A DNA stretch of 64,000 nucleotides from Marsupella aquatica. Taxonomy: Eukaryota > Plantae > Marchantiophyta. Below the pieces are notes generated by a model. That model was given only the letters and a program-made list of their open reading frames with translations, made no database searches and was not told the origin of the DNA. Location of the stretch: positions 1,690,457-1,754,456 of the forward strand of contig OZ316894.1 in assembly GCA_973895155.1 (NCBI GenBank), given 5' to 3'. Below, piece by piece: positions 30,039 through 54,863 of this stretch (position 1 is the stretch's first letter; every line of letters begins with the position of its first letter). The position numbers and the translations under genes are program-made.

Positions 30039-33000
30039 ATGGCGGTGGTAAGTGAAGTCGTTGCAGTATGCAGTTCAATCCTCGGCATTGTGTCAAAGAT
30101 CGACAATGTCAAGGAAGACTGGTTCACTGCATCAGCCGAGTACCAAAGTGAAGCGGAAATCCTCCGCTCAAGGCTCATCTCCTACGTGGAGCAAGTCCGT
30201 ATCCATCAGCAACCAGTGGATAGTACTATGATGAAGACTTTGAAGAGAGCCGAATCAACATTGAAGAGGGCGGAAGCAAGATTGACCAGCTTGGAAGAAA
30301 GCGTCGACAGCAACCAGTGCTGTTCGCAAATCTGGTGGTTGTATGCAAAGGTGACCATGACCCTTTTCCCAGAGAAATTAGAAAGCACATTGAAGAAGGT
30401 GAACCAGGACCTTGATGGCATCCCCAAGATACTCAAGGACGAACAGGAACTCTCTGGTCTACTGCGAGAAGCAGGCAAGAGTCGAGCCATCTCTACAGTT
30501 GTCCACAATAACGATAATAAATATGTGCCAATAGAAAAGTCACAGTCTGCGGTCATTCAAGCCATTGAAAATTCTGACGGCCCTCCCATGATACTACTGC
30601 ATGGTGGAGTAGGTAAAGGCAAGTCCACTCTTGCCAGATACATGTGTGAGCGCTACGGGCAATTTGGAGAAAAACAAGGCCTCTTTGATCACGTGATTGT
30701 GGTGTCGTGTGCTAATAGCTCCATAATTGATCTTGCCACCAAGCAATATGAAATCTTGGAGCAGCTTAGTCCGGCGAGTTTAACGGAGGAAAGCCGCTCA
30801 AAATCTGGAACTGGAAAATCTGGGGAGAGTATGGGCTCAAAGTCTAGAATTGCAGAAGCTCTGCAAAAGTTCTTCATTGGCAAGAAGGTTTTGATGGTCT
30901 TAGACGACGTTTCAGATAAGGGATTTCTGTACAAAATGTGGGAGGCTGCGAGAGATGGTAAAGATGATAAGATCCTCATCACTTCCCAATTGTCGAACAT
31001 ATGCGATGACTTTAAACATGACTCTTTGCTTATTACGATGGAAGATCCTACCAAAGAGGAAGCGAGACAGATCCTTGCTTCTCTTGTGGGGCTGGAGAGT
31101 AATCGAATTCCTGAGAATATACAGGTTAGTTCCCCTCAAGCACATTTCACCTTGGTCGTTTATTGAGGAGGTACGTGTTTTGTTAAAATGTCCGTTGTAT
31201 TTCTTTTTAATATCTACCAACTAAATTTAGTCCTCACTGTTTTATCTTTGTATGCAGGGGATAGCAGATGAGATGATCAAAGCTACAGCGGGAAATCCCT
31301 TAGCTTTGGCATGTTTGGCAAGTAACTTTGCTTATGCAAAGCATGCTAAAGATAAAACAAAGAAGCGGGATTGGCAAGCTGCTTGGACAGAGTTATCTCA
31401 GTTGCTAGGCAATAAAGCGATGGCTATCGTGGTAGGGCAGAATAGTGAGACTGCAGCTAGAAGCCTGTCGGGTGCTATGAAGATTTGTATAGATTCTCTT
31501 CAAACAGAGGATGCAAAACACACACTGTTCCTAATGTATGCATGTAAAGGAGAATCGGTTCCTGAAGAGGTTCTGCGGATTTTGTGCTCTAGTAAGATGT
31601 CAAATTCTACATTCAAGCGGTCCATAGATGAATTGTCTATGCGAGAGCTACTGAAGCCTACGACTGATACATTAGCATCTAAGATGAACTTGGAGAAGGA
31701 ACCAAATGTCGAGGAGTCTCCTGCATGGTTGCTACAGTCTTTAGTGAAGCTCTTTATGGAAAGGCATCTGGTTGGGAAACAGGAAATGAGTGCAGTGATT
31801 GGGGCCTTGGTTGGCGATGACGAGTTTCCACCTGAGTCGAGCTCCAAATACAAGGTAGAGGACTATGAACAGGAAATAGTGAAGATTACAACCGGGACTG
31901 GAACAGAAACCACGGAGAGTGATGAGATGAGGGTGACAATCGCTCTGTGTGCTCTGTACTTTGACCGCCGCCATACCGATCAAGGCGTGACTCGAGCTGT
32001 GGCTAAGGCTTCCAAAATATCCAATCTTGAAGATTCGGATGAGAACATCAATGATCTGAGGAGGAAGGCGATTGAGCCGTTGATATGGCTTCTCGACAAG
32101 CCTGAAGAGGACGACGAATGGACGAAAAGCGATAAATGCTGTGTGAGGAAGGTAGTGTCCTGTCCCCTTGAGTATGTTCTTTCGTTTGCAACTTATGTCA
32201 GTCCAAATTGAGGTTAGGGAATCATTCGAGTAACTCTAATACTTCGGCACTCACAGATCTAACAGTTCACATGTTTGCGCATGACCGATTGAGTCAAAGT
32301 TTACTAGCCGTACTTTCAGCCATTGTTTGCAGTTGCCACTTCTTTTGAAAATCAAGGACGGTTCTGTGTAAACTATACAAATTCGACTTCTCCCGTGAAA
32401 TTACTGTTTGATAGCACGTGGCTATGAGGTAAACGCAAGTATTATTTATCTTGTAAGTCTACTGTACAGAATAACAATTTAGGTTCTATATGTGATAGTT
32501 TCTAAAATCAGAGGTCGAGTCTAAGAAGCATGATTTCTTAGACGAGCCATGTGTCTTGGTGAACTTTGTTTGCCTTGTTATTTCACATGATTTCTTGGAA
32601 ATCGTAACAGTTCTGATCTATATTAAACCAATCGCGGTTGTTTCAAGTGATGTTGTGTCACTGAATTGTTTTGGACTTGTGAATCACTTACTTTGCAGGT
32701 TGTTCTTGACTACATATGCAAGCGCCAGCTAAACAACGAGAACATCATTTACCTGTTGAAGTTGGCTGCTGGTCCTGCTGTACAGCTGGCCACTCTCAAG
32801 GCTATCGCTCACATTACATCAATAGAAGAAACACCCCTGCTCAAAGAAAACACAGTCCAGTTTTTACAAGCTGTGGTCGACCTTTTGCATTTGAAGGAGG
32901 GTTTACACACTGGCGTTCAAGAGGCGGCCTCTACGGCACTACGTCGTGTTTGTTGGAAGGCCGCGGGTGACAAATCAGCAACCCTTGTTGCTAACATGTC

Positions 33001-35310
33001 GTCTGTTCTGGACGTGTTGGTACACTCCCTTGCCATTCCCGTTTGGGAGTCAGAGGCTTTTGCCGAAAACGCAGCATATGCTTTGAAGGGCTTAGCATTC
33101 TCGGAGGAAGAGGACATTGAACAAATAATTGTGAACAAACAGGACCTACTAGCTAGTCTTGTGAATTGCTTGTCTCAGAATTCCACGCCTAGTTTGCAAA
33201 AAGCCGCAGCAGGGGCTTTGGAAAATCTAGCTTGCACTCAAGATGACGCTGTCAAGCTGAGAATCGCCAATGAAGAAGGGGCTGTAATTGCCCTTGCGAA
33301 TTGCTTGTCGAAGGATGAAAATCCCCACTTACAAATACGAGCAGCAGCGGCTCTACGAAATCTAGCTTCTTCGAACGATGACTTTTGCAAGTTGAGAATC
33401 GTTAATGAGAAGGGGGCTCTAGTTGACCTCGCGAATTGCTTGTCAAAGCATGACAATTGTGAGTTACAAATAAAAGCAGCAGGGCTCCTGCGAAATCTAG
33501 CTTGGACTCTAGATGACTCTCTTAAGTGGAGAATCGCCAATGAGAACGGGGCTCTAGTTGGCCTCGCAAATTGCTTGTCAAAGCATGACAATCGCGAGTT
33601 ACAAATAAAAGCAGCAGGGGTCCTGCGAAATCTAGCTTGGACTCTAGATGACTCTCTCAAGTTGAGAATCGCCAATGAGAAGGGGGCTCTGGTTGGCCTC
33701 GCAAATTGCTTGTCAAAGCATGACAGTCGCGAGTTACAAATAGAAGCTGCCGCGGCTCTGCGAAGTCTAGCTTTTTCAAAAGATGACTCTCTCAAGTCGA
33801 GAATCACCGATGAGAAGGGGGCTCTGGTTGGCCTCGTCAATGTCTTGTCAAAGAATGACAGTCGCCAGTTACAGATACAAGCTGCTGGGGCTCTGCGAAA
33901 TCTAGCTTGGACTCCAGATGACACTCTCAAGTTGAGAATCGCCAATGAGAAGGGGGCTCTAGTTCGACTCGCGAACTGCTTGCGAAAGCGTGACAATTGC
34001 GAGTTACAAATAGAAGCTGCAGGGGCTCTGCGAAATCTAGCTTTTACAAAGGACGACTCTCTCAAGTTGAGAATCGCCAATGAGAATGGGGCTCTGGTTG
34101 GCCTCGTAAATTGCTTGTCACAATGTGCGAACCCTGATGTGCAAAGAGAGGCAACAATAGTGATATCAAACCTAGCTCTTGCTCCAGATGGAAAGGCGAT
34201 CCTTCAAGGAGCGGAAGGTCTGTTGCAGGGCCTTACAAGCTTGGTGGAAGATGACGTGCGTCGGGATATTCGAAGTTCAGCAGTACAAGCGCTGTTTCGA
34301 ATAGACCTGACACTAGCTAAGGAAGTGGGGTTGCTCTCGGCACAACTAGATGGCAAAGCTTTAAGGTATGGTCGTGAATTCTTAATTGATTTCGAGCACA
34401 ACCTAGATTGTATAAAGTTCGATGGAAGGGAACAAGATCATGCAACAAAGTGGCCAGTGTAAAAAAAGAATTCCGTAGTGAGTAACGAAGCTAAGGGCAA
34501 TATCTGTACAGAGGCTAGTTTATCGTGCAGCAAGATACTACACTATACTAACCATTCTGCCTAATCAGCTGACCTGACAAGCTCAGTTGGATAGATAATT
34601 AACCTATACTTGATTCGAGGGTTCAACTAGCGGAAGAGTTCAGAATTTCCAGAATTTGGTAGACCTTTTCCCTCGTTTGTCTCTTGATCTGCCTCGGTTA
34701 GCAGGCAAGCGAATTTGTGGCCAGCATTTTGACGATAAGATTGGGAGTTTTCTTAGCATTGCAGATTCCAGCCGATGATTTATTGTACCATAGTTTGGAA
34801 GCGTCCAAGCCTAGTGGCGTTGGATAGGATAACACAGCTACACTTGAAATATGGTAGTAGCCGGAGTTGAGAAGGGAGGTTGAACATGTTGACATCCAAC
34901 TGCACGTGAATGTTTTGCAGCGTACATTAACTAAGTTTCATATTTGTGCTTGCAGTCATAGAATTTTTGTAAAAGCAAAATTTGGAGACTTTGAAGGGGC
35001 ACTGGATGATGCCAACGAGGCAATCACGATGCCGGATGGCGAGAGGTTTTTTATCTTGCAGGAGAGAGGTGTCTTGAAACGAATGATGGAAGACCTTGAG
35101 GGAGCCCTGGCTGATTTGGAGGAAGGATTAAAACTAGAAACGAATGACTACGAGATGCTGAAGCATCGTGGTTATGTCAAATCCTTGTTAAATGACGTGG
35201 AAGGCGCTCGAGCAGATGCAGAGTGGGCTCTATCGATCCAATCCTCAAGGGATGACAGCGATGACTACTTGGGAGCAACCCCTGTAGAATACTTGGGCTA
35301 CAAGCTGTAG
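30039..35310 (+). CDS. Non-canonical NLR-like STAND protein copy 1: 4-helix/RPW8-like CC + NB-ARC + Armadillo repeats (7 core units) + TPR; 1333 aa
   Basis: Exons 30039-31124, 31258-32151, 32699-34365, 34956-35310, all GT-AG with matching phases (4002 nt). Walker A GGVGKGKST, Walker B KKVLMVLDDV, RNBS-B KILITSQ, GLPL-like GNPLAL. ARM units of type LANCLS..N..LQ..AA..LRNLA. TPR exon GDFEGALDDANEAI / EDLEGALADLEEGL / NDVEGARADAEWAL. Confidence 0.9.
33158..34102 (+). repeat. Seven tandem 135-bp (45-aa) Armadillo repeats with high internal DNA identity
   Basis: Exact 135-bp period with recurring AATTGCTTGTCAAAG...GAGTTACAAATA...CGAAATCTAGCT...AAGTTGAGAATCGCCAATGAG. Confidence 0.95.
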
Positions 35311-36545
35311 CAGTGGAGATTATTACTCGATGTCCGACAGTTACCGGGACTTGTAGATCATTGAATTGCGCCACTCGTAGATTGTTTGTGTGAAGCAGAG
35401 CGGAGCTTGAATGACAGCCATGACATGCGATTCTCTCTGTGGAACTAAAAAGCTTGAAAAAAAGACTTAGTAGCACCATATGTGCAGTCCGGCCCCGCTG
35501 ATGATTCTATTTCTATGTAATATTCAATGGCACGTAATTCAATGGACAGATCTGATCATACTAAGAGCTCAGGCAGCAAGGGTTTCAATACTAAGGACCA
35601 AGAGCCCGCGACGGAAAGTCATCATTCAGCAGCGTAAGGCTCACTTATGGAGACTCAAACATCAATATGTCTAAAGTTTTGTAGTACCTTGTAACTTTTG
35701 TAGCATTATTCTCTTAAGAAAGACAAGAGAATCCCCCTGCTCGTAGGTGGCATTGTGGCTGTTTCCTCCAAAAGCACAGCTTTCGCACTCCATAGAGAAA
35801 CAGAGAGGTGGAAGAAGGTGAAGGACAATAACATAATCATGATGTTGCTGTGCGACTGAAATCTTTTATGTCGTCGTTTCTTGTGGCTAGATGTAGGAAG
35901 AGTTGCAAAATGCGAAGTTATAAACGGTGTCTGCTGGAGCGGGGGTGAGGTTACAAATTCAAGACAAGCTCGCGATTCGATCACTACATTGCCGTGTGAA
36001 TTTAGGAGAAGCATCCAGAAACGTCATTTCCAAATGCAACCAAAGTAGAATAACACTTGAAACGCTGTCGTGACTCGAAATGACCTTCGGAAGAAGCAAG
36101 CTCTGCTAGGTTGACCCCTTTATGGATATATTCTTCCAGAAGTAACGACTGGATCCATAACTCTTTTCTGTTCACGATTTTGTGGGTCCTTGTGAATTCC
36201 AGTATCTGCAGAAGTTGCAGCTCTGGTCTCTATAATCTAAATCTTTCCACACGCATTATGAATCAAACAGGAACTAAGGGTGTTCTCCAGCTGCTTATCT
36301 CTAGGTGGCGTCTACGGTTTCAGTAACTAGCTGTACGTCTTTTGTTCCACAGTCGTAACAAGGACGTTCTCTGTCCCTGTGAAATCAGAAAGGCAGCAAG
36401 CGGCTTCACCGGGCCGGAGGTATCGTGGACCTTTTTCCATGGCGTTTCTGGTCCTACATTTGGTTTACAGTCCACTTCTGTTCAAGCAATATTTGGACGG
36501 GATAGCCTGTGCAACAGGAGGCTTCCATTTCAAGCTTTTTCATTA

Positions 36546-37368
36546 AGGGGGGACTTAAATATAGGCTGTGACTTATTTCCTGGGCAGTGCAAGTTAGGGC
36601 TGGGTTCCATGGGCCAGGGGCAGGGAGTAAGATCACTCCCTCTGACACCCCCTGCGGCCCAAATACCCATATGCCAAGGTGTACATAGTATTTTAAATGT
36701 ATGAGTTTTGACTTTAGAGCCAATGAGAATGCATTGTACTGTCACTATATAGGGGCAGGGGTTGCCCCTTGAATTTAACAGGGAGTGTGAGGGAAAATCA
36801 TACTCCTTACTTCCGTCTTTGTACACTCCTCACTCCCTGGAACAGCTGTGATCTTATTGACTCAAACATGCTGGCACACATGTGCACTCCCAGCCCCATG
36901 GAACCTAGCCCAGATAGGCAACATAGTATGGCAGCCCCCAGGCCAAGTGCGCACAATGTGGTTGCGGGTTTTGACTGTTTCCTGGCGACCATGTGGGTCC
37001 AAACGTCACCTTTGTTTGGTTTTTTTGGAAAGCAGAGCATCTTTCTTGCGCTTGCAGTTCTGGTTTACCTACACCACTTGTTTCCCAATGCGAACAAAAC
37101 CTAAAAGCCATTTTTTTTAAGCTTGTTATATCAGCCTGGGGTCCGCCTTAAACTGCCACCAGCCAAGACAAAAACATGATTACACAGATTTCACCACTTT
37201 TAGTACTTTTTCTCACAATTGTGGAACAAAGCCTCACAATAGAAGAGAGAAATGTAAAAAAGTGAGGAGTTTTGGACACTCCTCCTTTTATATGGCCAGT
37301 GGTGTTTTAAGGGCACACGAGTGGTCATTTTGCAATGAAACCAACCGACCCTAATTTTGAGTCCCCCT
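36546..37368. mobile_element. Probable MITE (~820 bp)
   Basis: Imperfect TIRs AGGGGGGACTTAAATATAGG ... CCTAATTTTGAGTCCCCCT. The TSD is ambiguous (ATT/TTA). Non-coding interior. Confidence 0.5.
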
Positions 37369-37537
37369 ATTTCATCTAATGCCAGCCCCCTAACAGCAGA
37401 ATCTGGAAAATATTAGATATTGTTTGGGCAATCTTTTCATGTTTTTATGCACCATCAACATATATTCAACGCCAACCTCTATTTTCTTGTTTTTATACTA
37501 TAACTTTAAAAATAATGGATCTGACTTGTTTCTTAGC

Positions 37538-39805
37538 AGCAGTGGAACAGATACAGAGAACTGTGGAGTGTTGCGCGTTGAATCAAAGTAGTGAAAAGCT
37601 GCGCTGAACCACGCCGTGGATTACCCTCTAAGCGAATGATGAAGCTTGAAGATGAGTTTTAAGTCACTCCTTGCTCATCAATGTTCGTTCTCTCTCGATG
37701 ATCATCTATCTTATGATATTTTACTCACTGCTATTTCCTACTGTGAAATTGATCTGCTCTATAATCTCGTACTTTTCCACTTGAAGAAGGCTTGAACGCT
37801 GTGAAATTGAATTTTAATGTAGTTGACCCGTGTGTATCTTTTGCAAGGTCATAGATCCTGGGCGTCTGAGTGAAGCACTGTCGGGACCTTTGAAACCCTC
37901 TCTGAATGGGGCCACTTCGGCAGGGGCTGCAGATGGGAATGTTAGGACCCCCCCTGAGAGTCCTGGCGCGGATGGAGGGAAAGATGGGTAACTGGATTCA
38001 ATACTTGCCGCTGTAAGTTTGTTACTCCTCCAAATTATGCTGTTCTGCTCGATTAAACTATCCCCGGATTAACAAACTCTGCAACCTCTTTGTCTGTGAT
38101 AAATGCGTTGTGTCTCTTCGTAAACCATTTAATTGTGACCAGCAAATCATCACTTGCTACCTCTGTGGCTTTGAGAGTAATCCGCAAAGATCGGGTGTGC
38201 AATGCAATTTGACCGCTGCTCACGTGAGTCCTAACATTGGTGCCGTGCAGGTGAAGCTTCTTTTTGCTGGAGAGAGCAAGTTATGTGACCAGATATTCTA
38301 TCATCTAGACCGACATCGAGAAATGGCCTTTGCAAAAGTCACGGAATCAAATACTACCATGCTTACCAGCTTTGCGGATGCCATTGCTAGAAGCAAAAAG
38401 TCACGAGAAAAGCTGTTTGTTCTGCTGGACATGTATGAGACCATGCGTGACCTTTCGCCAGACGTTTGTAGAAACCTTATCCTTCTGACATACTGTAAAT
38501 GTTTTTTATGTGCTGAAAACTTTGGTTGTTCATTTTTGGGTGTAGTTGGTACTAGGGTAGCTTGCTGGGAACCAGACCTGCTACCGCAGTTCTTATATCA
38601 CAGTTCCTGGAAATTGGTTAATTGTGAAATGCTTTCCAACCAACCAAAATCAAACCCGTTCTTTCTGAAGCTGATGGGATCTTGCATTCCAATTGACAGA
38701 TTGAATTAATCTGATCAGGAGAATAATGCGGCAGGCACACGTGAAGTGGCCAGTAATTTGTTGACGACTGCGAGTGATACACGCAATTGAATTGATGCAA
38801 CAAAGGCTCCTGTTAATGATGGAACTGTCAAACCGCTTACAAGCTTTGTCATCAATTACCTCAAGTTTCTGCTTACGTAAGTCCTTCCGTTCCTCAGTGA
38901 AAAGTTTTTGTTGCCCACATGATGGGCGTGAGAGTCTGATGAAGTAGATATTATGGTTATTGATTGGTACCCCTACACCACTACTCCGCTTTATCAGAAT
39001 GTCAAACCAGTGACTCGTTGCCATTTCGAATTTTTGTCAATGTAACTTTCTAAACTTTTTGTTGGTCCTCTCGTTCTCTTTTGAAGTAATCTTTTGAAGT
39101 AATCTTTGCTACATGAGTTTGCCGAAGGGCGTTCATCCAAGCGAGGTTTTGACACCAAGATACCACGATGCACAGGATTGCGGAGTCTTGTGGTTTGCTC
39201 GGCCACTACAGTACTGAAGCAACTGTTTGGGGAAATGGACAGTGGAGAAAACTCAAATTCCAAGCTGGCAACTTCTGTGAATCTGATCATCCAAAGTGCT
39301 CCAAAGCAACTCAGATTAGAAATCAAAGCTCTGGATCCGGCTCTCACTCAGCTCTTTCTTCTCAACAATATTCACTACATGATGAGATCTGTCCGAAGGT
39401 GGGTTGGCAAACGAATGCCTCACTAGCAAAGCCTGGATTGTGAACTAGTTTGCCATTTCTTTTTAGTTCAGCGTTTTCTACTTGTGACGGAAAGGCAGCA
39501 GGTTTACTTGCGTACATAAGAATTTGATTTCTGCAAGATTATATTTCCAATTTTTATCCTGTGCAATTAACAATTGATCGTGTGTGAGATTGCTGATTGG
39601 TGTCATATTTCTCGGTTGTTCTGGTAAACTATTTTCTTCTGACTTCATAGTTCGCCAGTGAATGCCTCAACCATCAGTCACACATGAAACTACATTTATA
39701 TTTGCAGGTCGGAAGCGAAAGAGTTGTTGGGATGATAGGGTGTAACGACATCTACAACTTGTGCAGCAGCATGCATCTATATGTTAGTGGTCTGCCTGGG
39801 GAAGG
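37538..39805 (+). pseudogene. EXO70A: Exocyst subunit Exo70A partial pseudogene (intron-containing, middle exons)
   Basis: MMKLEDEFKSLL; VKLLFAGESKLCDQIF...DAIARSKKSREKLFVLLDMYETMR; DATKAPVNDGTVKPLTSFVINYLKFL; DPALTQLFLLNNIHYMMRSVRR|SEAKELLG**. These match Exo70A1 motifs but carry stops and frameshifts. Confidence 0.85.
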
Positions 39806-42800
39806 TTATCGTTGTGGTATCAGTACTGATTGCTTTGCGACGTTGCTGTAGTTAGAGGGACTATTCAAGCGTTAGATGCTTTCTTTAATAAGAGACCAAA
39901 GGAACTCTTTAAGTATCATCCAGTCGTAGATGTCCTTCTACAGTAGTGCTCCGAGACAGCGCGACATAATTAAATATTTTGAATGGGGACATTGCCTCAC
40001 TGAGTTAGTGTACGAGCACAAAAAGCATTTGGTCCGCAGGGAAAATTGTTGTTTCCGAATTCCCTTTCCTAAGTCAGATCGACCAGATGCATTGGCCATA
40101 CAAAACAATGGAATATTCCTTTTCAATCTTTGAGTCTATGCGGTCCTATTTTCAAAATCAGCTTCCAGAGCAGAGGTATAGTTTTCTGTTTGGAAATTGA
40201 TGCGATCGATTGGCTGCTGTCCGAGGGAGGCTGCGTACAAATTTCTCGGTACCCATTGATCTCATCCCGTTGCCTAGGATTTGTAGTCAACTACAACCTC
40301 TGCTTCTCGACCGTTTACTGTTTGGGCTTGAATGACATCCATTGGCACAAATGTTTTAATCTTTTTCTTAGCAAGTACTCTCGAGTTCCCTGTGTTACCT
40401 CAAGTTTCAATTACCGCCAGGCCCGGTTAACTTTGCCATTGCCATCTTTTCTCAGACGTGTGTTCATCAGTCTGCTATTCTGAAGGCGCAGGACTGCATT
40501 TGTAGGAACGAAATTATCCTAAGCTGCACGAAACCGCTCAAGAGAAAAAGGCCACGGTCTGTCACTGTACCAAACATCTCTAGTGTGGAAGCCATGGCGA
40601 GCACAGGATTCTAAGTCAATTACCATCCCAGAATGGTCCTAGCTTGAGAGCTCACTTAAATGCCAGGACGCTTCGAATACGTTTACTTAGTTTGTTCCAA
40701 ACTCAAGCTAATCCCAGAATGTCACTTACCTGGGACTATAGTCCTCAGAACTTTCCCGTGTACAACCTGATAGGATTATGGATCCCCAACGTTCATCGAG
40801 TTTGTCCACTTGCGAATTGCTGTGGTCAGCTCTCCTTTCCTTGGACTTTTCTCCCTTTTTTCCGGCAGTTCCCTTATCCGTTAGACAGAAAGTTTTTGAA
40901 ATAAAAAAGAGACAAAAAAGTCTTTTCACATGTCGACATCCCTGCAGAACGACTGTATGCGTTGCTCAATGTCCCAGGAGATTGTGAAGAATTTAACCCA
41001 GAGTCGGATCTCGTGGAAGAACATGGCCGTGCCTGTTGGTCAATCGATTGACTGAACGAACCATCTGTCGTATTGTCGAGTAGGAGAATCTTTAGTCTAT
41101 TATTTATTAATACTTTGTGGGTCCGCCTGCCGGCGAGCAAAGGCTGCAGAGTGATGCTGAAAGGTGAGGGAGGCTGGCGTGGTGTTGACGAAGTGCACTT
41201 CCTGTTGCTCCTACAGGCTCTAGTACGAGAGATTCTTAGTTGACAGGAAATCCATCGATCGAACAGAGAGTTCTCGGGGCTTTGCACTGCATCTTCCGTA
41301 GTTCCATGAGGAAACTTATCCCCGAATTTATCCTTAATGTTTGCAGCACATTCGATGTCCAAACGTTGTAGCGAGATCCTTCTCCAAAGGGATGGCTATT
41401 GTACGAAGTCGGTGTGGCCTCCAAGACATAGCTTCAGAGCACTCTGAAATGGTTTGCAGGTCTGCACCCTTTTCGTTTCGACACTCCAATTTCATAGAGT
41501 AGAAACTTCTCTGGGTATGGCAATGCTTCGATTGGGCCGGGGTGGCTCGATCAGCCCGGGATACAGTAACTACAGTAGCTCGACAGTTAACTGATCTTTC
41601 CTTCCTTCCCCACAACCGATATCCTAGAACTAGTAGATATACAGTGAAGCTGAAAACTTTCCTCTTGCACGAAGACTAAGTCTAACATTGTAATTGCGGC
41701 GGCCTTGCTACGGGCGCATCTCCTTACCAGTAGTCTTGGGTTGCATCTGTTTGTGCGGGTGTGGGTATTGGGGCCGCAGTTCACTAGACAGGCGCTTGAC
41801 CTTCTCACCGTTCTGATCTACCTTCTCTGCATCCAGATAGATTCGAGCTTTCAAAGTAATAAAATCTACTTAAGTTGAAAACTGTGTCGTGCTTGCAATT
41901 GAGAGAGTGGGTCGATTATAATTGCCGGTGCATATTGTTTACAGCACTCTATGTGTGTGAGGGGAAGGGGGACCGGGCTCTTGGTGAAGGGTGATATACA
42001 CTTTGCAGTCTACAGACACTTTAATGGCGTCGAAGATCACAGTCATCCAGCATGGGTCCAAATTACCTTTTGCAGGCTCCTGCTCACGACAATCTAGGCG
42101 GATCTTGTGGCGTCCAAACTCTTCTCCAGGACTGCACAGCTGAAAGTAACCTGCTCCATTTGCTGTCGCTCCACCGATTGGGCTGGAAAGCACGGCTGAA
42201 CTTGATTAGTGTGCAATTGGGACGGATGATATCGGACATCGGCTATATCGTTCTATACCTAGATCTAGACGGTCAGCATCTGATGTATGCTCGATCCTAC
42301 ACCACTAGTGCCGCTCCAGTTTTCAGTCGTTATGATTCGAGGTCTCGCAAATTCATAGCCGTGCTAGGCATCACCTTGATGATCCTTGTGACCCTTGTCT
42401 ATGCCAACCATACCCAATTACTCCAAGCTCTCTTGGAACCTTTGATCTGATTAAGTGTCACTCCGAATCTGATGAAGCAGATGAGCATTTCACTGGCTCT
42501 TGGAAGTGGTGGGGACAACTCTTGTTGGGTTAGTAATGGTTCAACTCAACAGGGGTTCTCCCTGAATCATGAGGATGCAGCATTGCTCAAATATTAAGGA
42601 CACATAACTCCGGCGACGAACTAAGTACGCGGGTAAGGCCACTCCACGAAGAAATACATTTTTTTCTGCAAGACATTCATGTCCAATGGTAGTAGCGAAT
42701 TCGTTTTCCAAACGACATCGCTATTATGCGGTTTCGGTGGCCTCATAGACATAGCAGCGACGTTAATGTGTGAAGCCCTCCGAGCTTAGATACTGTTATC

Positions 42801-42848
42801 GTAATCGCTGACGGATTTCTAATCCGTGCCTGGTCGGACTGCAGATTC

Positions 42849-45800
42849 ATGGCGGTGGTAAGTGAAGTCGTTGCAGTATGCAGTTCAATACTCGGCATTG
42901 TGTCAAAGATCGACAATGTCAAGGAAGACTGGTTCACTGCATCAGCCGAGTACAAAAGTGAAGCGGAAATCCTCGGCTCAAGGCTTAGCTCCTACAAGGA
43001 GCAAGTCCGCATCCATCAGCAACCAGTGGACAGTACTATGATGAAGACTTTGAAAAGAGCCGAATCAACACTGAAGAGGGCGGAAGCAAGATTGAAGGGC
43101 TTGGAGACAAGCGTCGACAGCAACCAGTGCTGTTCGCAAATCTGGTGGTTGTATGCAAAGGTGACCATGACCCTTTTCCCAGAGAAATTAGAGTGCACAT
43201 TGAAGAAGGTGAACCAGGACCTTGATGGCATCCCCAAAATACTCAAGGACGAACAGGAACACTCTCGTCTACTGCGAGAAGCAGGCAAGAATCGAGCCAT
43301 CTCTACAGTTGTCCACGATAACGATAATAAATATGTGCCAATAGAAAAGTCACAGTCTGCGGTCATTCAAGCCATCGAAGATTCTGATGGCCCTCCCATG
43401 ATACTACTGCATGGTGGAGTAGGTAAAGGCAAATCCACTCTTGCCAGATACATGTGTGAGCGCTACGGGCCATTTGGAGAAAAAAAAGGCGTCTTTGATC
43501 ACGTGATTGTGGTGTCGTGTGCTAATAGTTCCATATCTGATCTTGCCACCAAGCAATATGAAATATTGGAGCAGCTTTCTCCCACGAGTTTAACCGAGGA
43601 AAGCAGTTCAAAATCTGGAACTGGAAAATCTGGGGAGAGTGTGGGCTCAAAATCTAGAATTGCAAGAGCTCTCCAAAATTTCTTCATTGGCAAGAAGATT
43701 CTGATGGTCTTAGACGACGTTTCAGATAAGGGATTTCTGTACAAAATGTGGGAGGCTGCGAGAGATGGTAAAGATGATAAGATCCTCATCACTTCCCAAT
43801 GGTCCAACATATGCGACGACTTTAAACATGACTCTTTGCTTATTACGATGGAAGATCCTACCAAAGAGGAAGCGAGGCAAATCCTTGCTTCTCTTGTGGG
43901 GCTGGAGAGTAATAGAATTCCTGAGAATATACAGGTTAGTTCCTCGAGTAGATTTCACCCTGGTCGTTTATTGTGGAGGTACTTGTTTTGTTAAGTTGTC
44001 TGCTGTACATCTTTCTAATGTCTACTAACTAGATTTAGTCCTTACTGTATGTTTTTATCTTTGTATACAGGGGATAGCAGATGAGATGATCAAAGCGACA
44101 GCGGGAAATCCATTAGCTTTGGCATGTTTGGCAAGTAACTTTGCTTATGTAAAGGATGCTAAAGATAAAACAAAGAAGCGGGATTGGCAAGCTGCTTGGA
44201 GAGAGTTATCTCAGTTGCTAGGCAATAAAGCGATGGCTATCGTGGCAGGGCAGAATAGTGAGACTGCCGCTAGAAGCCTGTGGGGTGCCATGAAGATTTG
44301 TATAGAATCTCTTCAAACAGAGGGTGCAAAACGCACACTCTTCTTGATGTATGCATGTAAAGGAGAATCGGTTCCTGAAGAGGTCCTGCGGATTTTGTGT
44401 GCTGGTATGAAGATGTCAAATTCTATTTTCAAGAGGTCCATAGATGAATTGCGCATGCGAGAGCTACTGAAACCTACAACGGATACATTAGCATGGAAGA
44501 TGAATTTGGGGAACGGACCAAATGACGAAGTGTCTCCTGCATGGTCCATACAGTCTTTAGTGAAGCTCTATATGGAACGGGATGTGGTAGGGAAACAGGA
44601 AATGAGGGCAGTGATTGGGGCATTGGTTGGTGATGACCAGTTTCCACCTGAGTCAAGCACCAAATACAAGGTACACGACTATGAAACCGAAATATTGGAG
44701 ATTGCAACCGGGACTGAAACAGCAACCGTGGAGAGTGATGAGGTGAGAGTGACAATTGCTCTCTGTGCTCTGTACTTTGACCGCCGCCATACCGATCAAG
44801 GCGTGACTCAAGCCGTGGCTAAGGCTTCCAAAACATCCAATATTGAAGACTCTGAAGACAACATTAATGATCTGAGGAGGAAGGCGGTTGAGCCGTTGAT
44901 ATGGCTGCTCGACAAGCCTGAAGAGGACGACGAATGGACAGAAATGGATAAATGCTGTGTGAGGAAGGTACTGTCCTGTCCCCCTTGAGTATGTTCTTTC
45001 CTTTGTAACTTACGTCAGTCCGAATTGAAGTTAGAGAATCATTCGAGTGACTTTTATACTTGGGTACTCACAGATCATGTTTGCGCATGACCGATTGAGT
45101 CAACTTTTAATAGCCATACTTCAGCTATTCTTCACAACTTCGCACTTCTTTTGAAAACCAAAAGGACGGTCCTCTGTAAAATATACAATGTCAACTTTTA
45201 CAGTGAAAGTAGTGTTTGATAGCACGTGGTTGAGTGGTAAATGCAAGTAACATTTATCTTGGAACTCTATTGGACAGAATAACAATTTCTATATGTGATA
45301 GTTTTGAAAGAGTGCGAGTCTTGGAAGATTGATTTCTTGTGGTAGTTGAAGAGCCATGTGTCTTAGTGAGGTTTTCCTGCCTAGTTTCTCTTCGACAGGA
45401 GTTCTTATCTACATTCAACTAATCGAGGTTGTCTGCAATTATATATTGTCACTGAATTGTTTTAGAATTGTAAATCACTTTCTTTGCAGGTTGTTCTTGA
45501 CTACATATGCAAGCGCCAGCTAGATAACGAGAACATCACTTACCTCTTGAAGTTGGCCCCTTGTCCTTCTGCACAGTTGGCCACTCTTGAGGCTATCATT
45601 CACATAACACGGATAGAAGAAACGCCCCTGCTCAACGTAAACACAATCAGCTTTTTGCAAGCTGTAGTTGACCTTATGAACTTGAAGGAAGGTTTCCGCA
45701 CCAGTGTCCAAGAGGCAGCCTCTTTAGCCCTGTCTCGTCTTTGTGTGAAGGCCGCGCGTGACAAATCAGCAACCCTTGTTGCTAACTTGTCGCCTGTTCT

Positions 45801-47272
45801 GGACGTGGTGGTACGCTCCCTTGCCATTCCCGTTTGGAAGTCAGAGGCATTTGCCGAAAACGCAGCATATGCTTTGATGGGCTTAACATTCTCGCAGGAA
45901 AAGGACATTGAACAAGTAATTGTGAACAAACAGGACCTACTAGCTAGTCTTGTGAATTGCTTGTATCAGCAATCCAAGCCCAGTTTGCAAGCAGCCGCAG
46001 CAGGGGCTTTGCGAAATCTAACTTTTAGTCTAGATGAAGCTGTCAAGCTGAGAATCGCCAATGAAGAAGGGGCTCTTGTTGGCCTCGTGAATTGCTTGTC
46101 ACAATGTGAGAACCCTGTTGTGCAAAGAGAGGCAACAGCAGCGATAACAAACCTAGCCCGTACTCCAGATGGAAGGGCGATCCTTAAAGGAGCGGCAGGT
46201 CTGTTGCAGGGCCTTACAAGCTTGGTGGGAGATGACGTGCGTCGGGATGTTCGAAGTTCAGCAGTACAAGCGCTGTTTCGAATAGACCTGACACTAGCTA
46301 AGGAAGTGGGGTTGCTCTCGGCACATCTAGATGGCGAAGCTATAAGGTATGGTCGTGATTTTTTTTAATTGATTTCGAGCACAACCTAGATTGTATAAAG
46401 ATCGATGGAAGGGAACAAGATCATGCAACAAAGTGGCCAGTGTAAAAAAAAGAATTCCGTAATGAGTAACGAAGCTAAGGGCAATATCCGTACAGAGGCT
46501 AGTTTATCCTGCAGCAAGATACTACACTATACTAACCATTCCGCCGAGTTAGCTGGCTTGAGAATCTCAGTTGGATAGAGAATTAGCCTGTATTTGATTC
46601 GAGGGTTCAACTAGCGAAAGTGTTCAGAATTTCCAGAATTTGGCAGACTTCTTCTCTCATTTGTCTCTTGATCTGCCTCGGTTAAGCAGGCAATCGATTT
46701 GTGGCAAGCCTTTTGACAATAAGGTTGGAAGGTTTCTTAGCATTGTAGAACCAGCTCATGATTTATTGTACCATACATTTTAAGACGTCCAAGCCTAGTG
46801 GCATTGGATTGAGTAACATAGCTATACTTGAAATATGGTTGTAACCGAAGTTAAGAAGAAAAGGGTGAACATGATGTGTTTGCAGCGTATAACGAAGTTT
46901 CATGTTTGTGATGGCAGTGATAGAATATTTATAAAAGCAAAAGCTGGAGACTTTGAAGGGGCACTGGCCGATGCCAACCAGGTAATCACGATGCCGGGTG
47001 TCGACAGGCGGTTTGTCTTGCAGGAGAGGGGTGTCTTGAAACGAATGATGGAAGACCTAGAGGGAGCCCTGGCAGATTTGGACGAAGGATTAAAACTAAC
47101 ATCAAATGACTACGAGATGCTGAAGCATCGTGGTTATGTCAAATCCTTGTTAAATGACGTGGAAGGCGCTCGAGCAGATGCAGAGTGGGCTCTATCGATC
47201 CAATCCTCAAGGGATGACAGCGACGACTACTTGGGAGGAACGCCTGTAGAATACTTGGGCTACAAGCTGTAG
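42849..47272 (+). CDS. NLR-like CC-NB-ARC-ARM-TPR copy 2 with a single core ARM unit; 1064 aa
   Basis: Exons 42849-43934, 44071-44967, 45490-46346, 46918-47272 (3195 nt, open). Same intron positions and phases as copy 1. One 135-bp core unit at 45949-46083. Confidence 0.9.
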
Positions 47273-48164
47273 CAGTGGAGATTATTACTCGGTGTTCCAC
47301 AGTTACCGGAACCGTGTTGGATTTGTAGATAATTGAATCGCGCCATTCGTAGATTGTTTGTGTGAAGCAGAGCGTAGCTTGAATCACGATGATGATATGC
47401 GATTCACTCTCTGCGACTGGAAAGCTTGGAAAAAAAACTTCGTAGCACCATATGTGCAGGCTGGCCCTGCACAGAGGGTGTCAAAGATGATTGTATTCCT
47501 GTGTGATATTCAATTGTATGTAATTCAATAAACGGATCTGATCATACTAAGAGCTTATTCAGGCATGGGTTTCAATATCAAGGACCAAGAGCCCGCGGCG
47601 GAAAGTCGTCATTCAGCATGCTCACTTGGGGAGACTCAGACATCAATCTGTCTAAATTTTCGTCGTACCTTGTTACTTCTGTAGTATTATGCCGTTAAGA
47701 AAGACATGAGAATCCCCCTGCTGTTAGGAGGGATTTTGGCTGCTCTTCCAAAACGCCTTTCATAGAGAAACAGAGAGATCCACGAAGGGCAAAAGCGTAG
47801 CTTTCGCCTTTCAAAGAGAAACAGAAAGATCCAAGAATGGCAAGGACAATAACATAATCATGATGTTGCTTTGCAACTGACATGTTCTATGTCGACAGTT
47901 TTTGTGGCTAAACGTAGGAAGAGGTGTACAAATTCGAAGCTAGAATCGGTTTCTGCAGGAGTGGGGATGAGATTACAAATTCAAGACAAGCTCGCGATTC
48001 GTTCACTACAGAAGCCGTGTGAATTACTAAGGGGTGCCAAAGCTATTGACAGTAGAACAGAAATAGCTCCACAAAGCCCGTTAAACATCATGTTGACAAT
48101 GTCTCCAGAAAAGGAAGGGGAAATACAGTTTTGAATTGAGAGGGTTTTGTCAGGCTAAAACAAG

Positions 48165-50258: not shown

Positions 50259-51163
50259 TCGAACTTCTCTGTTTTACAGTTCTTCGTATTTTCCCGCAGT
50301 CCTTTTTTAGTAAATTCTATGTTGATGCAGTTTGTGCAATCGCCACAGTTGCACGAAGATGTGAGATCAAAGTCTTCCTTTCCACAAGCTCTTCAGTAGT
50401 GATTTCCCTGCGCGCAATTCGAAGCTAGCAATTAATCACGTAGGAAGCATAGCTCAGTCGACTTCGTGCATACCGAGTTGCCGAGTTCAGTGAGAACTTC
50501 GCCTTGACTTTGGACCGGGGTATTGCCAGATTGCATTATGCAGATACAAATGTGGGAGATCAAGCGTGTGTTGATGTATAACACCAGCCCGAATAAACTG
50601 AGGTCAAGTTGAGTTCGGGAGTGACAGCCCTCCCTCGCCGCACGCAGGTATTCTGGCCGTGCATAATTAGTCAACTTGTTTCTGCTGTAGAGCAGGCCTC
50701 AATTTCATCGAACATTGAGGTCGCCGTTTCTGCAATCTGAAATTCTACAGCTCGAACCTTCAATTCAGGTCGCCGGAGATGGTCATTACCGACGTTGGCC
50801 GCAAGGTATGTGTTGTTCATACATGTTGAGTGAGCTTGCACTAGGACCATATCTGTACTTCAATCGTCGAGCTTGTCTTTGCATTGCCCTAGCCCTCTCC
50901 TTCATTCAGCACGTACTCGACAGAACTTGTAATGGTTGCAGCTCTGCAGATCTATTTTGTTTCGACAAATAGAGTAGAAACTTTTCTGGGTATTGCAATG
51001 CCTCGATTAGCCCGTGATGCCTCGATCAGATCGGGATGCAGTATGTACAGGAGCTCGACAGTGAAGTGATGTTTCTTTCCTTCCGGAGCGTTGATCTCTT
51101 AGAACTTAGTAGATCTACTTTTACGAGAAGTCTTGGGTTGCATTTGTGTGTGTGGGTACGTGT

Positions 51164-54100
51164 ATGACAATAGCGAGTTACAAACACAGGTAGCACGGGC
51201 TTTGAGAAATCTAGCCTCCTCAAGACATCACGAGTATCTCGGGCTCAGATCCGACAATGAGCGTGCTCTGGTTCGCCTCGTGAATTGCTTGTCTCGTCAA
51301 TCCAAGCCTAGAATGCAAGCAGCCGCGTCAAGGCGTTTGCGAAATCTGGCTGCTACTGGAGATGACGCTGTCAAGCTGAGAATTGCCAATGCGGAAGGGG
51401 CTCTAGTTGGGGTAGTGAGTTGCTTGTCAAACGATAACAACAAGAAATTACAGTTGCATTCAGCATGGATTCTGGTAGCACTAGCAGGTTCAAAAGATGA
51501 GTCTCTCAAGTTGAGAATCGCCAATGACGAGGGGGTTGTGGTTGGCCTCGTGAATTGCTTGTCAAAGCATGACAATCCCGAGTTACAAGCAACCGCAGCA
51601 GGGGCTTTGCTAAATCTAGCTATTAATGGAGATGAGTCTGTCAAGCTGAGAATCGCCAATGAGGAAGGGGCTCTGGTTGCGGTAGTGAGTGGCTTGTCAA
51701 ACAATAAGAACAGTAAATTACAACTCCGTTCAGCATGGATTTTGGCAGCACTGGCAGCTTCAAAAGATGAGTCTTTCAAGTTGAGAATCGGCAATGAGGA
51801 CGGGGTTCTGGCTGGTCTCGTAAATTGCTTGTCAAAGAATTACAATGTCGTAAATTGCTTGTCAAAGCATTACAATCCTAAGTTACAAACAGCCGCAGCA
51901 TCTGCTTTGCGAAGTCTATCCATTGGGGGTGAGGCTGTCAAGCTGAGAATCGCCAATGAGGAAGGGGCACTAGTTGGGGTAGTGAGTTGCTTGTCAAACA
52001 ATAAGAATAGTAAATTACAATTGCATTCAGCAACGATTTTGGCAGCCCTGGCAGATTCAAAAGGTGAGTCTTTCAAGTTGAGATTCGGCAATGAGGACGG
52101 GGTTCTGGCTGGTCTCGTAAATTGCTTGTCAAAGCATACAATGCTGAGTTACAAACAGTCGCAGCAGCCGCTTTGCAAAAACTTTCAATTGGAGGTGAGG
52201 CTTCCAAGCTGAGAATCGCCAATGAGGAAGGGGCTCTAGTTGGCATAGTGAGTTGTGTGTCCAATGATGAAAACGGCAAATTACAATTGTATTCAGCATT
52301 GACGTTGGCAGCACTGGCAAATTCAGAAGATGAGTCTCTCAAGTTGAAAATCGCCAATGAGGATGGGGTTCTGGTTGGCCTCGTAAATTGCTTGTCAAAG
52401 AAGGACAATCCCAAGTTACAAGTAATTGTAGCAGTGGCTTTGGGAAATCTAGCTTGTACTAAAGATGACGCGGTCAAGCTGAGAATTGCCAATGAGAAAC
52501 AGGCTCTAGTTAGCGTAGTGACTTGCTTGTCAAATGATGACAACGGCGAATTGCAAACACAGTCAGCACGGATTTTGGCATCTCTAGCAGCTTCAAAAAA
52601 TAATTCTCTGAAGTTGAGAATCGCCAATGACAAGGGAGTTCTGGTTGGCCTCGTAAACTGCTTGTCAAAGCATGAAAATGCCAAGTTACGAGAAGTGGCA
52701 GTAGGGGCTTTGATGAATCTTGCCACTTCACAGTCCCTCAAGCTGAGAATTGCTAATGAGGAAGGTGCTATAGTAGGCCTCGTGAATTGCTTTTCTCAGA
52801 AAGCCAATCCAAGTTTGCAAGCAGCTGCAGCAGGGGCTTTGCGAAATCTAGCTTGTACTACGGATGACGCGGTCAAGCTGCGAATTGCCAACGAGGAAGG
52901 GGCTCTGCTTGGCATAGTGACTTGCTGGACAAACGACCACAACCCCCAATTACAAAGACATTCAGCATACATTTTGACAGGTTTAGCAGCGTCAAAAGAT
53001 GAGCCTCTCAAGTCGAGAATCGCCAAAGAAGTGGGGGTTCTGGTTGGCCTCGTCAATTTTTTGTCAAAGCATGACAATAGCGTGTTACAAGCACACGCAG
53101 CACGAGCTTTGAGAAACCTAGCCGCTTCAAAAGATGAGTCTGTCAAGTTGAGAATCGCCAATGAGGAGGGTGCTCTGGCTGGCCTCGTGAATTGCTTGTC
53201 ACAATGTGAGAACCCTGATGTGCAAAGAGAGGCAGTCATAATGGCATCAAACTTAGCTCGTGCACCAGATGGAAAGGCGATCCTCAAAGGAGCGGAAGGT
53301 CTTTTGCAGGGCCTTACAAGCTTGTTGGGAGATGACGTGCATCCGGATCTTCGAAGTTCAGCAGCACAGGCGATTTTTAAAATAGACCCGACACGAGCTA
53401 AGGAAGTGGGGTTGCTCTCGGCACAACTAGATGGCCGAGCGTTAAGGTATGGTCGTGAATTTATCACTGATTTCGGCACAACTCTAGATGGTATAAAGAT
53501 GGGTGGAAGGGAACAAGATTGTCCAACGAAGTGGCCAGTGTAGAAAAAGAATTCCGAAGTAAGTAACGAAGCTAAGGGCAGTATTTGTGCGAGTATTTGT
53601 GCATATGCGATGATTCATGAGAGTAGTTTATCCTGTAGCAAGATGATGTACTATACAAACCATTCCGCCTAATTAGCTGGCTTGACAAGCTCAGTTGAAT
53701 AGAAAAATAAACTCGCCTCGATTCGATGGTTCAACTAGCGGAAGAGTTCAGAATTTCCAGGATTTCGCAGAGTTTTTTCCTCATTTGTCTTTTGATCTGC
53801 CTCGGTTAGCAAGCAAGCGAATTTGCGGCGAGCCTTTTGACGATAAGATTGGAAGGTTTCTTAGGATTGCAAACTCCAACAGAGGATTTATTGTACCCTA
53901 CAATTGGAGACGTCCAAGCCTAGTGGCGTTAGATTGAGTGGGTACTTGAAATGTGGTAGGAGCCAACTTGACAAGAAAGGGTGAACGGATTGAAATCCCA
54001 GTGCGCGTGATTGTTTGAAGCGTATAACTAAAGTTTCATATTTGTGATGCAGTCATAGGATTTTTGTAAAAGCAAAATTTGGGGACTTTGAAGGCGCACT

Positions 54101-54407
54101 GGACGATGCCAACCAGGTAATCACGATGCGGGATGTCGAAAGGCGGTTTGTCTTGCAGGAGAGGGGTGTCTTGAAACGAATGATGGAAGACCTTGAGGGA
54201 GCTCTAGCAGATTTGGACGAAGGATTAAAACTAAAAGCAAATGACTACGAGATGCTCAAGCATCGTGGCTATGTCAAATTTTTGTTGGATGACGTGCATG
54301 GCGCTCGCGCAGATGCAGAATGGGCTCAATCAATCCAACCCTCAAGGGAAGACACGGACTGCTACTTGGGAGGAACCCCGGTAGAATACTTGGGCTACAA
54401 ACTGTAG
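51164..54407 (+). pseudogene. NLR-like copy 3: headless ARM array (14 units plus a partial one) + cap + TPR exon; lacks CC and NB-ARC; one frameshift
   Basis: Upstream sequence homologous to 41.5-41.77 kb is fused directly to mid-repeat sequence at ~51164. 1-nt deletion at ~52137 (AAGCATACAATG vs AAGCATTACAAT). Conserved last intron 53447-54052 and intact TPR exon 54053-54407. Confidence 0.85.
51277..53183 (+). repeat. 14 tandem ~135-bp ARM units, largely alternating A/B types
   Basis: 1907 bp = 14x135 + 30-bp duplication (51818-51877) - 3 - 3 - 6 - 1. A type: LVNCLSK..N..LQ..AA.AL.NL. B type: VVSCLSN..N.KLQL.SA.IL.ALA.SK. Confidence 0.9.
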
Positions 54408-54489
54408 CAGTGGAGATTATGACTCGATGTTCCAAAGTTACTGGAACGGTGTTGGATTTACTGGAACGGTGTTGGATTTGTAGATAATT

Positions 54490-54863
54490 AGTGTAGCCCT
54501 TATTCCCAGTTCTTTGAACATGAATAGCAAAGAAGACAATAAAAAAATTATCAAAATATATTTGAGATTCATATTCTTTGAAAATTAATGAAATGATAAA
54601 AAAAATTTCATCATTTTAATAGTCATATATAATATATCATTCTCCTTGATGTGCACGGGCTTTTTGTATGCACATCCATGTTCTATGCACATATGTTGTG
54701 GTGGGGCCATACTACCTATATTTTTTTAATGTACATGTCATAAGTTTTTCCCATGTATATGATGACCATGCACATGATGACCATAAAGTTACTGTCTAGA
54801 GGCTTCACTCTAGACCCTAGCCTGTGAAAAGTAGACTGCAGTTTGCGCTTTATTAGTAAGATT
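54490..54863 (+). mobile_element. Fragment of the same Helitron family inserted just 3' of copy 3
   Basis: Reverse complement of ~23835-24250 with an internal deletion. Absent at the homologous site of copy 2 (GTAGATAATTGAATCG at ~47325-47340). Confidence 0.8.

Follow-up and report, generated by a model that had tools for sequence, protein, structure and literature searches.

The tandem gene cluster described here lies in a 64,000-nucleotide stretch of the genome of the liverwort Marsupella aquatica (NCBI GenBank assembly GCA_973895155.1, contig OZ316894.1, positions 1,690,457 to 1,754,456 of the forward strand), which we call the window and in whose coordinates all positions are given. Judged by its sequence, the cluster belongs to the liverwort “CC-NB-ARM” class (coiled-coil, nucleotide-binding, Armadillo) and comprises a pair of intact genes and a relic; on balance we read the intact genes as probable intracellular receptors of the immune type. 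Genes 1 and 2 are intact tandem paralogs that encode an N-terminus predicted to be a helical bundle, an NB-ARC domain, an array of Armadillo (ARM) repeats and three TPR-like repeats. The architecture is already catalogued in liverworts; new are an apparent in-register contraction of the array, the likeness of units within their own array and the recurrence of hypervariable positions on ARM helix 3.

The region is eukaryotic, with a GC content of about 45%. When stop-to-stop open reading frames (ORFs) of the plus strand were scanned with Pfam at E ≤ 0.01, four kinds of coding segment emerged. The first combines a helical N-terminus and NB-ARC, the second is a middle part without annotation, and the other two consist of ARM repeats and of TPR-like repeats. 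When splice borders were set by comparison with P0001, a full-length protein of Calypogeia fissa (1551 aa), these segments joined into two genes of four exons each (Table 1). Both joined coding sequences (CDS) are open through to one terminal stop, and all three introns have GT-AG borders in identical phases in the two genes, the last intron being kept in the relic, locus 3, as well. A first-pass annotation of this DNA had proposed spliced genes of this architecture with a 1333-aa product, and both proposals were reproduced, the latter for gene 1. Its description of a plant STAND protein in which ARM and TPR repeats replace leucine-rich repeats (LRRs) also agrees with the Pfam results: no LRR family was among the matches at E ≤ 0.01 on any exon ORF, where ARM and TPR families appeared instead, and the same scan gave no TIR family, the N-terminus being predicted all-helical.

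Could the four-exon models be artefactual, and the NB-ARC part and the ARM-TPR part belong to separate neighbouring genes? The models were built from genomic sequence rather than from transcripts, and locus 3 is indeed an ARM-TPR segment without an NB-ARC segment; we nevertheless consider this extremely unlikely, given that both paralogs have the same exon order, phases and GT-AG borders, that the NB-ARC fold crosses intron 1 and that ARM-like helices already start in the tail of exon 2. Moreover, the same parts are united in single annotated proteins of Calypogeia, Marchantia and Riccia, and exon 3 of gene 1 lacks an ATG in its first 120 codons, its whole 5' end included.

The Pfam NB-ARC family was matched by the two exon-1 ORFs with E-values of 2.8e-14 and 7.9e-14, exceeding the 23.5-bit cut-off. 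Gene 1 has an intact Walker A (GGVGKGKS from aa 189) and Walker B (LMVLDDV from aa 285), as had been noted in the first pass, and a GLPL-type motif, GNPLAL, at aa 374; the residues Gly-189, Gly-192, Gly-194, Lys-195 and Asp-289 are invariant among 18 aligned relatives. Exon 2 alone matched no Pfam family, and neither exon 1 (at E ≤ 0.01) nor exon 2 (at E ≤ 1) brought up a useful match when compared with PDB sequences. The domain spans intron 1, because in full-length Calypogeia relatives the NB-ARC profile (positions 5-221 of 248) runs unbroken over the junction of exons 1 and 2. An AlphaFold2 (AF2) model of exon 2, based on 24 aligned sequences (pLDDT 79, pTM 0.78), contains helices and a β-hairpin in the order of HD1 and winged-helix domains, followed by a disordered linker and ARM-like helices. 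The top Foldseek rows for this model were Apaf-1, CED-4, NRC2 and NRC1 (E 0.016-0.1, probability about 1.0), with ADR1, NRG1 and Sr35 among the further ones; all rows fall between E 0.016 and 0.4 and none below 0.001. The root mean square deviation (rmsd) from tomato NRC2 is about 4.2 Å across 172-185 columns.

The repeat ORFs match Pfam Arm with E-values of 1.2e-27, 4.4e-12, 5.5e-11 and 2.5e-19, and PDB sequence matches of the array include an engineered ARM protein, Vac8 and importin-alpha. The repeat unit measures 45 aa (135 bp), and Tandem Repeats Finder (TRF) reports 6.8 copies of period 135 with 82% matches in gene 1. Core units number seven in gene 1 and one in gene 2 (45979-46113), in line with the first-pass counts of 7, 1 and 14; only the third array differs, with 15 units in locus 3. 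Genes 1 and 2 share 88% DNA identity, introns counted in, and their alignment breaks within the array, where they are offset by exactly 810 bp, or six 135-bp units; this appears as a single gap of 270 aa in the protein alignment. Array length thus varies among the paralogs by in-register loss or gain of units, as had been proposed. The lone unit of gene 2 is chimeric: its 5' two-thirds resemble unit 1 of gene 1, and its 3' third resembles unit 7. We infer that gene 2 lost six units in one in-register event, probably by unequal recombination of units 1 and 7, after the gene duplication.

The repeats had been described as nearly identical at the DNA level, and this description is wrong. Identity among the 21 unit pairs of gene 1 ranges from 68.1 to 94.1% (median 79.3%) in DNA and from 47 to 89% in protein, and the only pairs to reach 85% in DNA are u3/u4 (94.1%) and u4/u6 (86.7%); in locus 3, where the units are mostly arranged as a two-unit super-repeat of 270 bp, TRF matches are 64-80%. 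For shuffling repeats of the fungal type, near-identity means roughly 85-90% or more. Synonymous divergence (dS) between units is 0.17-1.02 for all pairs save u3/u4 (0.10). The comparison of gene 1 with gene 2 gives a dS of 0.10-0.21 for five of the seven segments; the other two are the short unit-1 segment (0.30) and the cap that follows the array (0.016). Since most unit pairs exceed the divergence between the genes, the array is probably older than the gene duplication; u3/u4 appears to be a younger unit duplication. Four public sequencing runs were also compared with positions 29900-47400, in the form of short Logan contigs of a multi-copy family, none of which spans an array. The few joints that these contigs suggested in the gene 1 array (skip 205, go back 469) have short sides and do not correspond to whole numbers of 135-bp units, and they were given no weight.

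To compare the units position by position, a hidden Markov model (HMM) made from the seven gene 1 units was used to gather full-length units, both in the window and in Calypogeia proteins, and entropy was calculated for four sets (19 window units, the 7 units of gene 1, 17 units of P0001 and P0002, and 9 units of P0006). The highest entropy falls on unit position 6 in all four sets, positions 5, 9, 12, 16 and 18 recur, and the arrays have correlated entropy profiles (rho 0.44, p = 0.002; rho 0.54, p = 1e-4). By ARM structure, unit positions 1-17 would correspond to helix 3, one face of which lines the ligand groove in ARM proteins of the importin-alpha type; we take positions 9 and 13 to align with the Trp and Asn of the importin-alpha ladder that binds nuclear localisation signals. 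By analogy, the variable positions would lie on one groove-side face of helix 3 and form a putative recognition surface. Units are also most alike within an array: 6 of 7 units of gene 1, 10 of 11 of locus 3, 7 of 7 of P0002 and 9 of 9 of P0006 have their nearest counterpart in the array to which they belong. The exception is P0001 (1 of 10), an effect of the intermingling of its units with those of P0002, its close paralog. Such own-array likeness fits lineage-specific amplification or homogenisation. We do not claim positive selection on the units, as the ratio of nonsynonymous to synonymous rates (dN/dS) of whole units is below 1.

The C-terminal module was annotated as three TPRs in a separate exon. 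It does occupy its own exon and consists of three TPR-like repeats of 34 aa, and its Pfam scores are below the curated cut-offs: the exon-4 ORFs reach 21-24 bits for TPR_1 (cut-off 27.8) and 22-26 bits for TPR_9 (cut-off 35), with E-values of 1e-4 to 9e-6 (gene 1: TPR_1 3.2e-5, TPR_9 1.2e-4). Relatives exceed the TPR_1 cut-off in their C-terminal part (P0021 31.4, P0045 34.7 and P0052 41.6 bits), and weak profile matches of exon 4 include TOM70, the UNC-45 TPR and SGT1. Two Calypogeia fissa proteins, P0003 and P0004, terminate after the ARM array without a TPR tail, and the array of P0003 contains three almost identical double units of 90 aa. The TPR module is therefore optional in the family, and some arrays of the family are far more uniform than those of the window.

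Locus 3 is a 5'-deleted, frameshifted relic without N-terminus or NB-ARC, so that of the three adjacent paralogs originally proposed two are intact and the third is not. A 1-bp loss in one of its units splits the array over two frames, and tblastn with the gene 1 exons and five Calypogeia proteins, run at E up to 10, located coding sequence for the N-terminus or NB-ARC nowhere in the window except in genes 1 and 2. The flank upstream of the array (50928-51118) is matched by the stretch 41445-41642, which lies about 1.2 kb ahead of gene 2. This suggests that locus 3 arose as a third tandem copy, and its promoter-proximal region, exons 1 and 2 and the start of exon 3 appear to have been lost in one deletion. 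The locus is present in two organisms among the four public runs. Over 50900-54500 at 97% likeness, these runs list no indel at the frameshift site, where a missing row does not prove identity, and the sole indel listed is a 3-bp loss at 51230 in one organism; this tends to suggest that the frameshift is real and an assembly error at the site unlikely. A further sign of slippage within locus 3 is a 30-bp tandem duplication at 51818-51876, inside one ARM unit, which repeats VNCLSK(N/H)YN.

The clear decay of this copy raises the question of whether any copy is expressed or functional, the open frames of genes 1 and 2 being recent leftovers. One could add that the MHD-position His is lost in both genes, that a transposon and Exo70 fragments are found nearby, and that a search for sequencing runs listed five, none of them recorded as RNA. 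Yet frames of 1333 and 1064 codons are kept over four exons with intact splice sites, and the comparison of the two genes gives a dN/dS of 0.28-0.61 in six of seven segments, including the N-terminus, NB-ARC, pre-array ARM region and TPR, at a dS since duplication of about 0.1-0.2. These ratios fit retained function, and we regard general decay of the locus as very unlikely.

A phmmer search with the exon-1 product against 1.84 billion representatives yielded 66 proteins at E ≤ 0.001. Thirty were looked up, 26 of them named and 4 unnamed; the named ones are from Calypogeia fissa (13), Riccia sorocarpa (6), Marchantia paleacea (4), Riccia fluitans (2) and Acacia (1), i.e. 25 are liverwort proteins, and the Acacia protein matches the nucleotide-binding part only. 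No angiosperm protein of the RLS1 type is among the 26. All 18 long matches that were scanned contain NB-ARC; families of the ARM/HEAT type occur in 13 of them and TPR families in 5. The Marchantia relatives P0016 (5e-26), P0044 (5.5e-12) and P0052 (1.5e-9) are 28-35% identical over the N-terminus and the nucleotide-binding domain; P0052 (M. paleacea) carries NB-ARC, Arm and TPR_1/2/9 and falls in a 90% cluster with the M. polymorpha protein “MpNBS-LRR15”. A profile of the N-terminus and nucleotide-binding domain reaches angiosperm resistance proteins of the CNL and TNL types (2.5e-9 to 8e-4). Word-index protein searches found Calypogeia proteins only, plus distant angiosperm NLRs with the profile, and no RLS1-type protein. 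Within Calypogeia, P0001 and P0002 share 81% identity across the NB-ARC region, yet P0002 has a different and much longer N-terminus; P0005 combines the NB-ARC-ARM-TPR body of the family with an N-terminus that resembles a DUF676-type hydrolase (0.96).

The class to which the window genes probably belong has been inventoried. According to the available part of PMC12512272 (2025; this and the other papers are cited for the portions available), “CC-NB-ARMs” are conserved in plant genomes, with rice RLS1 as an example. Its Table S3 lists a “CC-NB-ARM” cluster (rows 116-174) with 11 entries from M. paleacea and 5 from M. polymorpha, besides rice LOC_Os02g10900, ferns and lycophytes, some of the lycophyte entries with Helo_like_N. 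Three entries of each Marchantia species are given there as “(NBARC)(ARM)(TPR)”, those of M. polymorpha being Mp5g08960, Mp5g10840 and Mp5g21860. P0044 shares an odd Pfam string (PUL, Cys_knot) with M. paleacea row 154 of this table, and we therefore tentatively place the window family in the same cluster; that the Marchantia rows are our phmmer matches is likewise deduced from species and domain strings. The first-pass view that the combined architecture was undescribed must accordingly be abandoned in the light of these Marchantia entries and of MpNBS-LRR15 in the cluster of a relative. Other papers, in the portions available, describe the use of ANK, TPR and ARM repeats by non-flowering NLRs (PMC10586772), a separate NB-armadillo clade (PMC7145615) and ARM expansions in Selaginella (PMC8559963). 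The name “MpNBS-LRR15” was absent from the papers that our literature search found, and the papers searched contained no functional characterisation of the Marchantia “(NBARC)(ARM)(TPR)” proteins; nor did the search, which left bioRxiv supplements outside its scope, return a paper that deals with the dynamics of the arrays or with variable positions for this class.

The closest comparison is with these Marchantia proteins, which have the same domain order; they differ by their low identity to the window genes (28-35%) and by mostly keeping the His that the window genes have lost. RLS1 is a protein of 1040 aa with CC-NB-ARC, three ARM motifs and a retained MHDV, implicated in cell death and disease resistance (PMC10030324, available portion). 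The window genes resemble the RLS1 class in having a helical or CC N-terminus, then NB-ARC and then a C-terminal ARM region instead of LRRs (Pfam Arm 1.2e-27), and are unlike RLS1 in their tandem arrays of 1-15 regular 45-aa units, their C-terminal TPR module, their tandem clustering and the Gln at the position of the MHD His. TIR-NB-ARC-TPR (TNP) proteins, an old non-LRR class of plant STAND proteins (PMC10586772, available portion), share the order of NB-ARC and C-terminal TPRs; the window genes, however, lack TIR, have the ARM array between NB-ARC and TPR and carry just three TPR-like repeats. Bryophyte Hyd-NLRs are defined by DUF676-like alpha/beta-hydrolase N-termini (PMC12512272, available portion). 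Calypogeia P0002 and P0005 share the NB-ARC-ARM(-TPR) body with the window genes, P0005 with the hydrolase N-terminus, whereas the window genes have a helical bundle instead.

Fungal STAND/NLR proteins of the HET-E/NWD type are known for highly conserved, shuffling repeats. The likeness to them lies in an ATPase joined to a superstructure-forming repeat array, unit numbers that vary among paralogs, own-array likeness and a few hypervariable positions; the differences are an NB-ARC rather than a NACHT domain, ARM rather than WD40, ANK or TPR units, and a DNA identity among units of 68-94% rather than near-identity.

Several points weigh against reading genes 1 and 2 as immune-type receptors. 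The first concerns the N-terminus, for which kinship with RPW8/MLKL cell-death domains had been suggested. Its AF2 model, based on 36 aligned sequences (pLDDT 78, pTM 0.64), has four long helices and a fifth (residues 2-28, 33-56, 63-90, 97-126 and 128-148), and the helical N-terminus of the first-pass annotation is thus retained as a predicted bundle, situated where the CC domain of an NLR would sit. The exon-1 ORFs gave no match to Pfam RPW8, MLKL_N, HeLo or SesA at E ≤ 0.01, and the best E-value in a Foldseek search of the model against the PDB was 0.24. A VIA search returned the Sw-5b SD (Z 8.6), NRG1 CC-R (8.4; rmsd 3.2 Å over 107 aa), Rx CC (8.0), MLKL (7.3), MLA13 (7.1) and HET-s (6.8), intermixed with designed and unrelated bundles, and Z values under about 13 are common for helical bundles. 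In language-model space the neighbours are SesA, RPW8, MLKL_N and HeLo clusters at 0.85-0.88, which we rate as leads only. With Pfam matches lacking, Foldseek values of 0.24 or above and VIA scores in the range of generic bundles, RPW8/MLKL membership was not accepted. Of the domain composition expected from Pfam, AF2 and Foldseek, NB-ARC and ARM were found, a Pfam match to RPW8 was not, and the TPR matches stayed below cut-off.

Second, the His of the MHD position is replaced by Gln in both genes (WLLQSL and WSIQSL), while most relatives keep it in the form W-S-[LVI]-H-x-[LM], typically W-S-L-H-S-L, and the nucleotide switch of the window genes may therefore behave differently. Third, dN/dS among units averages 0.53. 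The cap behind the array (34133-34365 in gene 1, aa 1139-1215, versus 46114-46346 in gene 2) does show about 14 residue differences (dN 0.095, dS 0.016); its dN/dS of 5.9 rests on about one synonymous change, and the divergence, at very few sites, could reflect adaptive change or gene conversion. Fourth, the exon joins are supported by sequence logic and by predicted proteins of other species, and a putative kinship with RLS1 is deduced from a shared table cluster rather than from a tree. Finally, RLS1 itself is described, in the available portion of PMC10030324, as a regulator of cell death and immunity and not as a proven pathogen sensor.

The last point leads to the alternative that the window genes, rather than sensing pathogens, encode conserved regulators like RLS1 with a signalling or scaffold role, for example in senescence or cell-death control, that their ARM/TPR part binds fixed host partners, and that their repeat numbers drift neutrally. 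RLS1 is reported to act with a host receptor-like protein (PMC10030324, available portion), the average dN/dS of the units is below 1, the repeats are just moderately alike, and the UniRef names of the Riccia and Marchantia relatives are Vac8-like or UNC-45-like. A fixed-partner regulator is harder to reconcile with a multi-copy family, of which the named matches include at least 13 distinct representatives from Calypogeia, or with tandem duplication, pseudogenisation and arrays of 1 to 15 units. Close paralogs, moreover, differ in their N-termini (P0002 versus P0001, and the DUF676-like P0005), and variability is focused on recurrent positions of helix 3. Copy number, array variation, differing N-termini and focused variability are the habits of an immune-receptor family, not of a housekeeping scaffold, and we therefore consider the regulator alternative possible and on the unlikely side.

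If genes 1 and 2 are immune-type receptors, a ligand would bind on the helix-3 face of the ARM array, and binding would release the NB-ARC switch. The protein would then oligomerise, and the N-terminal bundle would signal, as in CC-type NLRs. A bolder version, which we hold to be doubtful, makes the liverwort CC-NB-ARM-TPR proteins genuine sensors of pathogens: effectors would bind directly in the helix-3 groove, the loss, duplication and within-array homogenisation of units would make new specificities, much as the first-pass annotation had proposed for unit shuffling, and truncated arrays such as that of locus 3 would serve as reservoirs of donor units.

The surroundings of the cluster contain further coding fragments and repeats. 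Between genes 1 and 2 two ORFs match Exo70_C (Table 1) and represent either an intron-bearing gene or a degraded copy, in any case a neighbour and not a part of the receptor genes. Exo70 proteins are guardees or targets in NLR immunity, and their presence here may not be accidental. Downstream of gene 1, every one of the four runs shows a contig word depth at 36324-37491 that is 10- to 30-fold over the flanks, and loose ends are numerous at 36594-36596 and 37310-37312; this looks like an inserted dispersed repeat or transposon. At the start of the window, a CACTA-type transposase occupies 267-4009 on the plus strand, perhaps extending to about 9067 (Transposase_21 2.2e-57, with Transpos_assoc and DUF4218); the long ORFs that follow it at 5400-9067 have no family match. 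Beyond locus 3, 57200-57899 and 58046-58741 hold a 51-bp tandem repeat array of about 10 copies and an adjoining ORF with a weak match to the SSB family (4.1e-6).

Table 1. Coordinates of the receptor-like genes, the relic and the neighbouring Exo70 fragments in the window.
Feature	Position	Strand	Description
Gene 1	30039-35310	+	exons 30039-31124, 31258-32151, 32699-34365, 34956-35310; CDS 4002 nt, 1333 aa
Gene 1 exon 1	30039-31124	+	predicted N-terminal helical domain (aa 1-148) and nucleotide-binding part of NB-ARC; donor ENIQ/GTTAGT
Gene 1 exon 2	31258-32151	+	ARC1/HD1 with GNPLAL, winged-helix, disordered linker, first ARM-like helices; acceptor CAG/GGG, donor AAG/GTAGTG
Gene 1 exon 3	32699-34365	+	degenerate ARM region, seven core 135-bp ARM units (33188-34132), capping ARM region
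Gene 1 exon 4	34956-35310	+	three TPR-like 34-aa repeats, conserved C-terminus ...VEYLGYKL, stop; phase-2 junction AG/GTATGG ... CAG/T
Gene 2	42849-47272	+	exons 42849-43934, 44071-44967, 45490-46346, 46918-47272; CDS 3195 nt, 1064 aa
Locus 3 ARM part	51172-53446	+	15 units (51172-53213) and cap; 1-bp frameshift near 52135-52137
Locus 3 TPR exon	54053-54407	+	intron borders as in genes 1 and 2; TPR_9 9e-6
Exo70 fragments between genes 1 and 2	ORFs 38017-38709, 39103-39426	+	Pfam Exo70_C 2.6e-15 (11-87 of 372), 9.2e-7 (184-240 of 372)

Plant intracellular immunity is understood almost wholly through the LRR-based NLRs of flowering plants. Because the class of the window genes has already been inventoried, this locus is of value for the mechanistic hypothesis that it suggests rather than as a newly discovered architecture: one window presents an intact pair and a relic of the ARM/TPR class, a putative six-unit contraction that can be dated relative to the gene duplication, and recurrent variable positions on helix 3. 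The locus supplies constructs and residues with which ARM arrays can be tested as recognition modules in bryophyte NB-ARC proteins. Were the pathogen-sensor version to hold, it would mean that plants possess an LRR-independent form of recognition by repeat shuffling, convergent with that of fungal NLRs.

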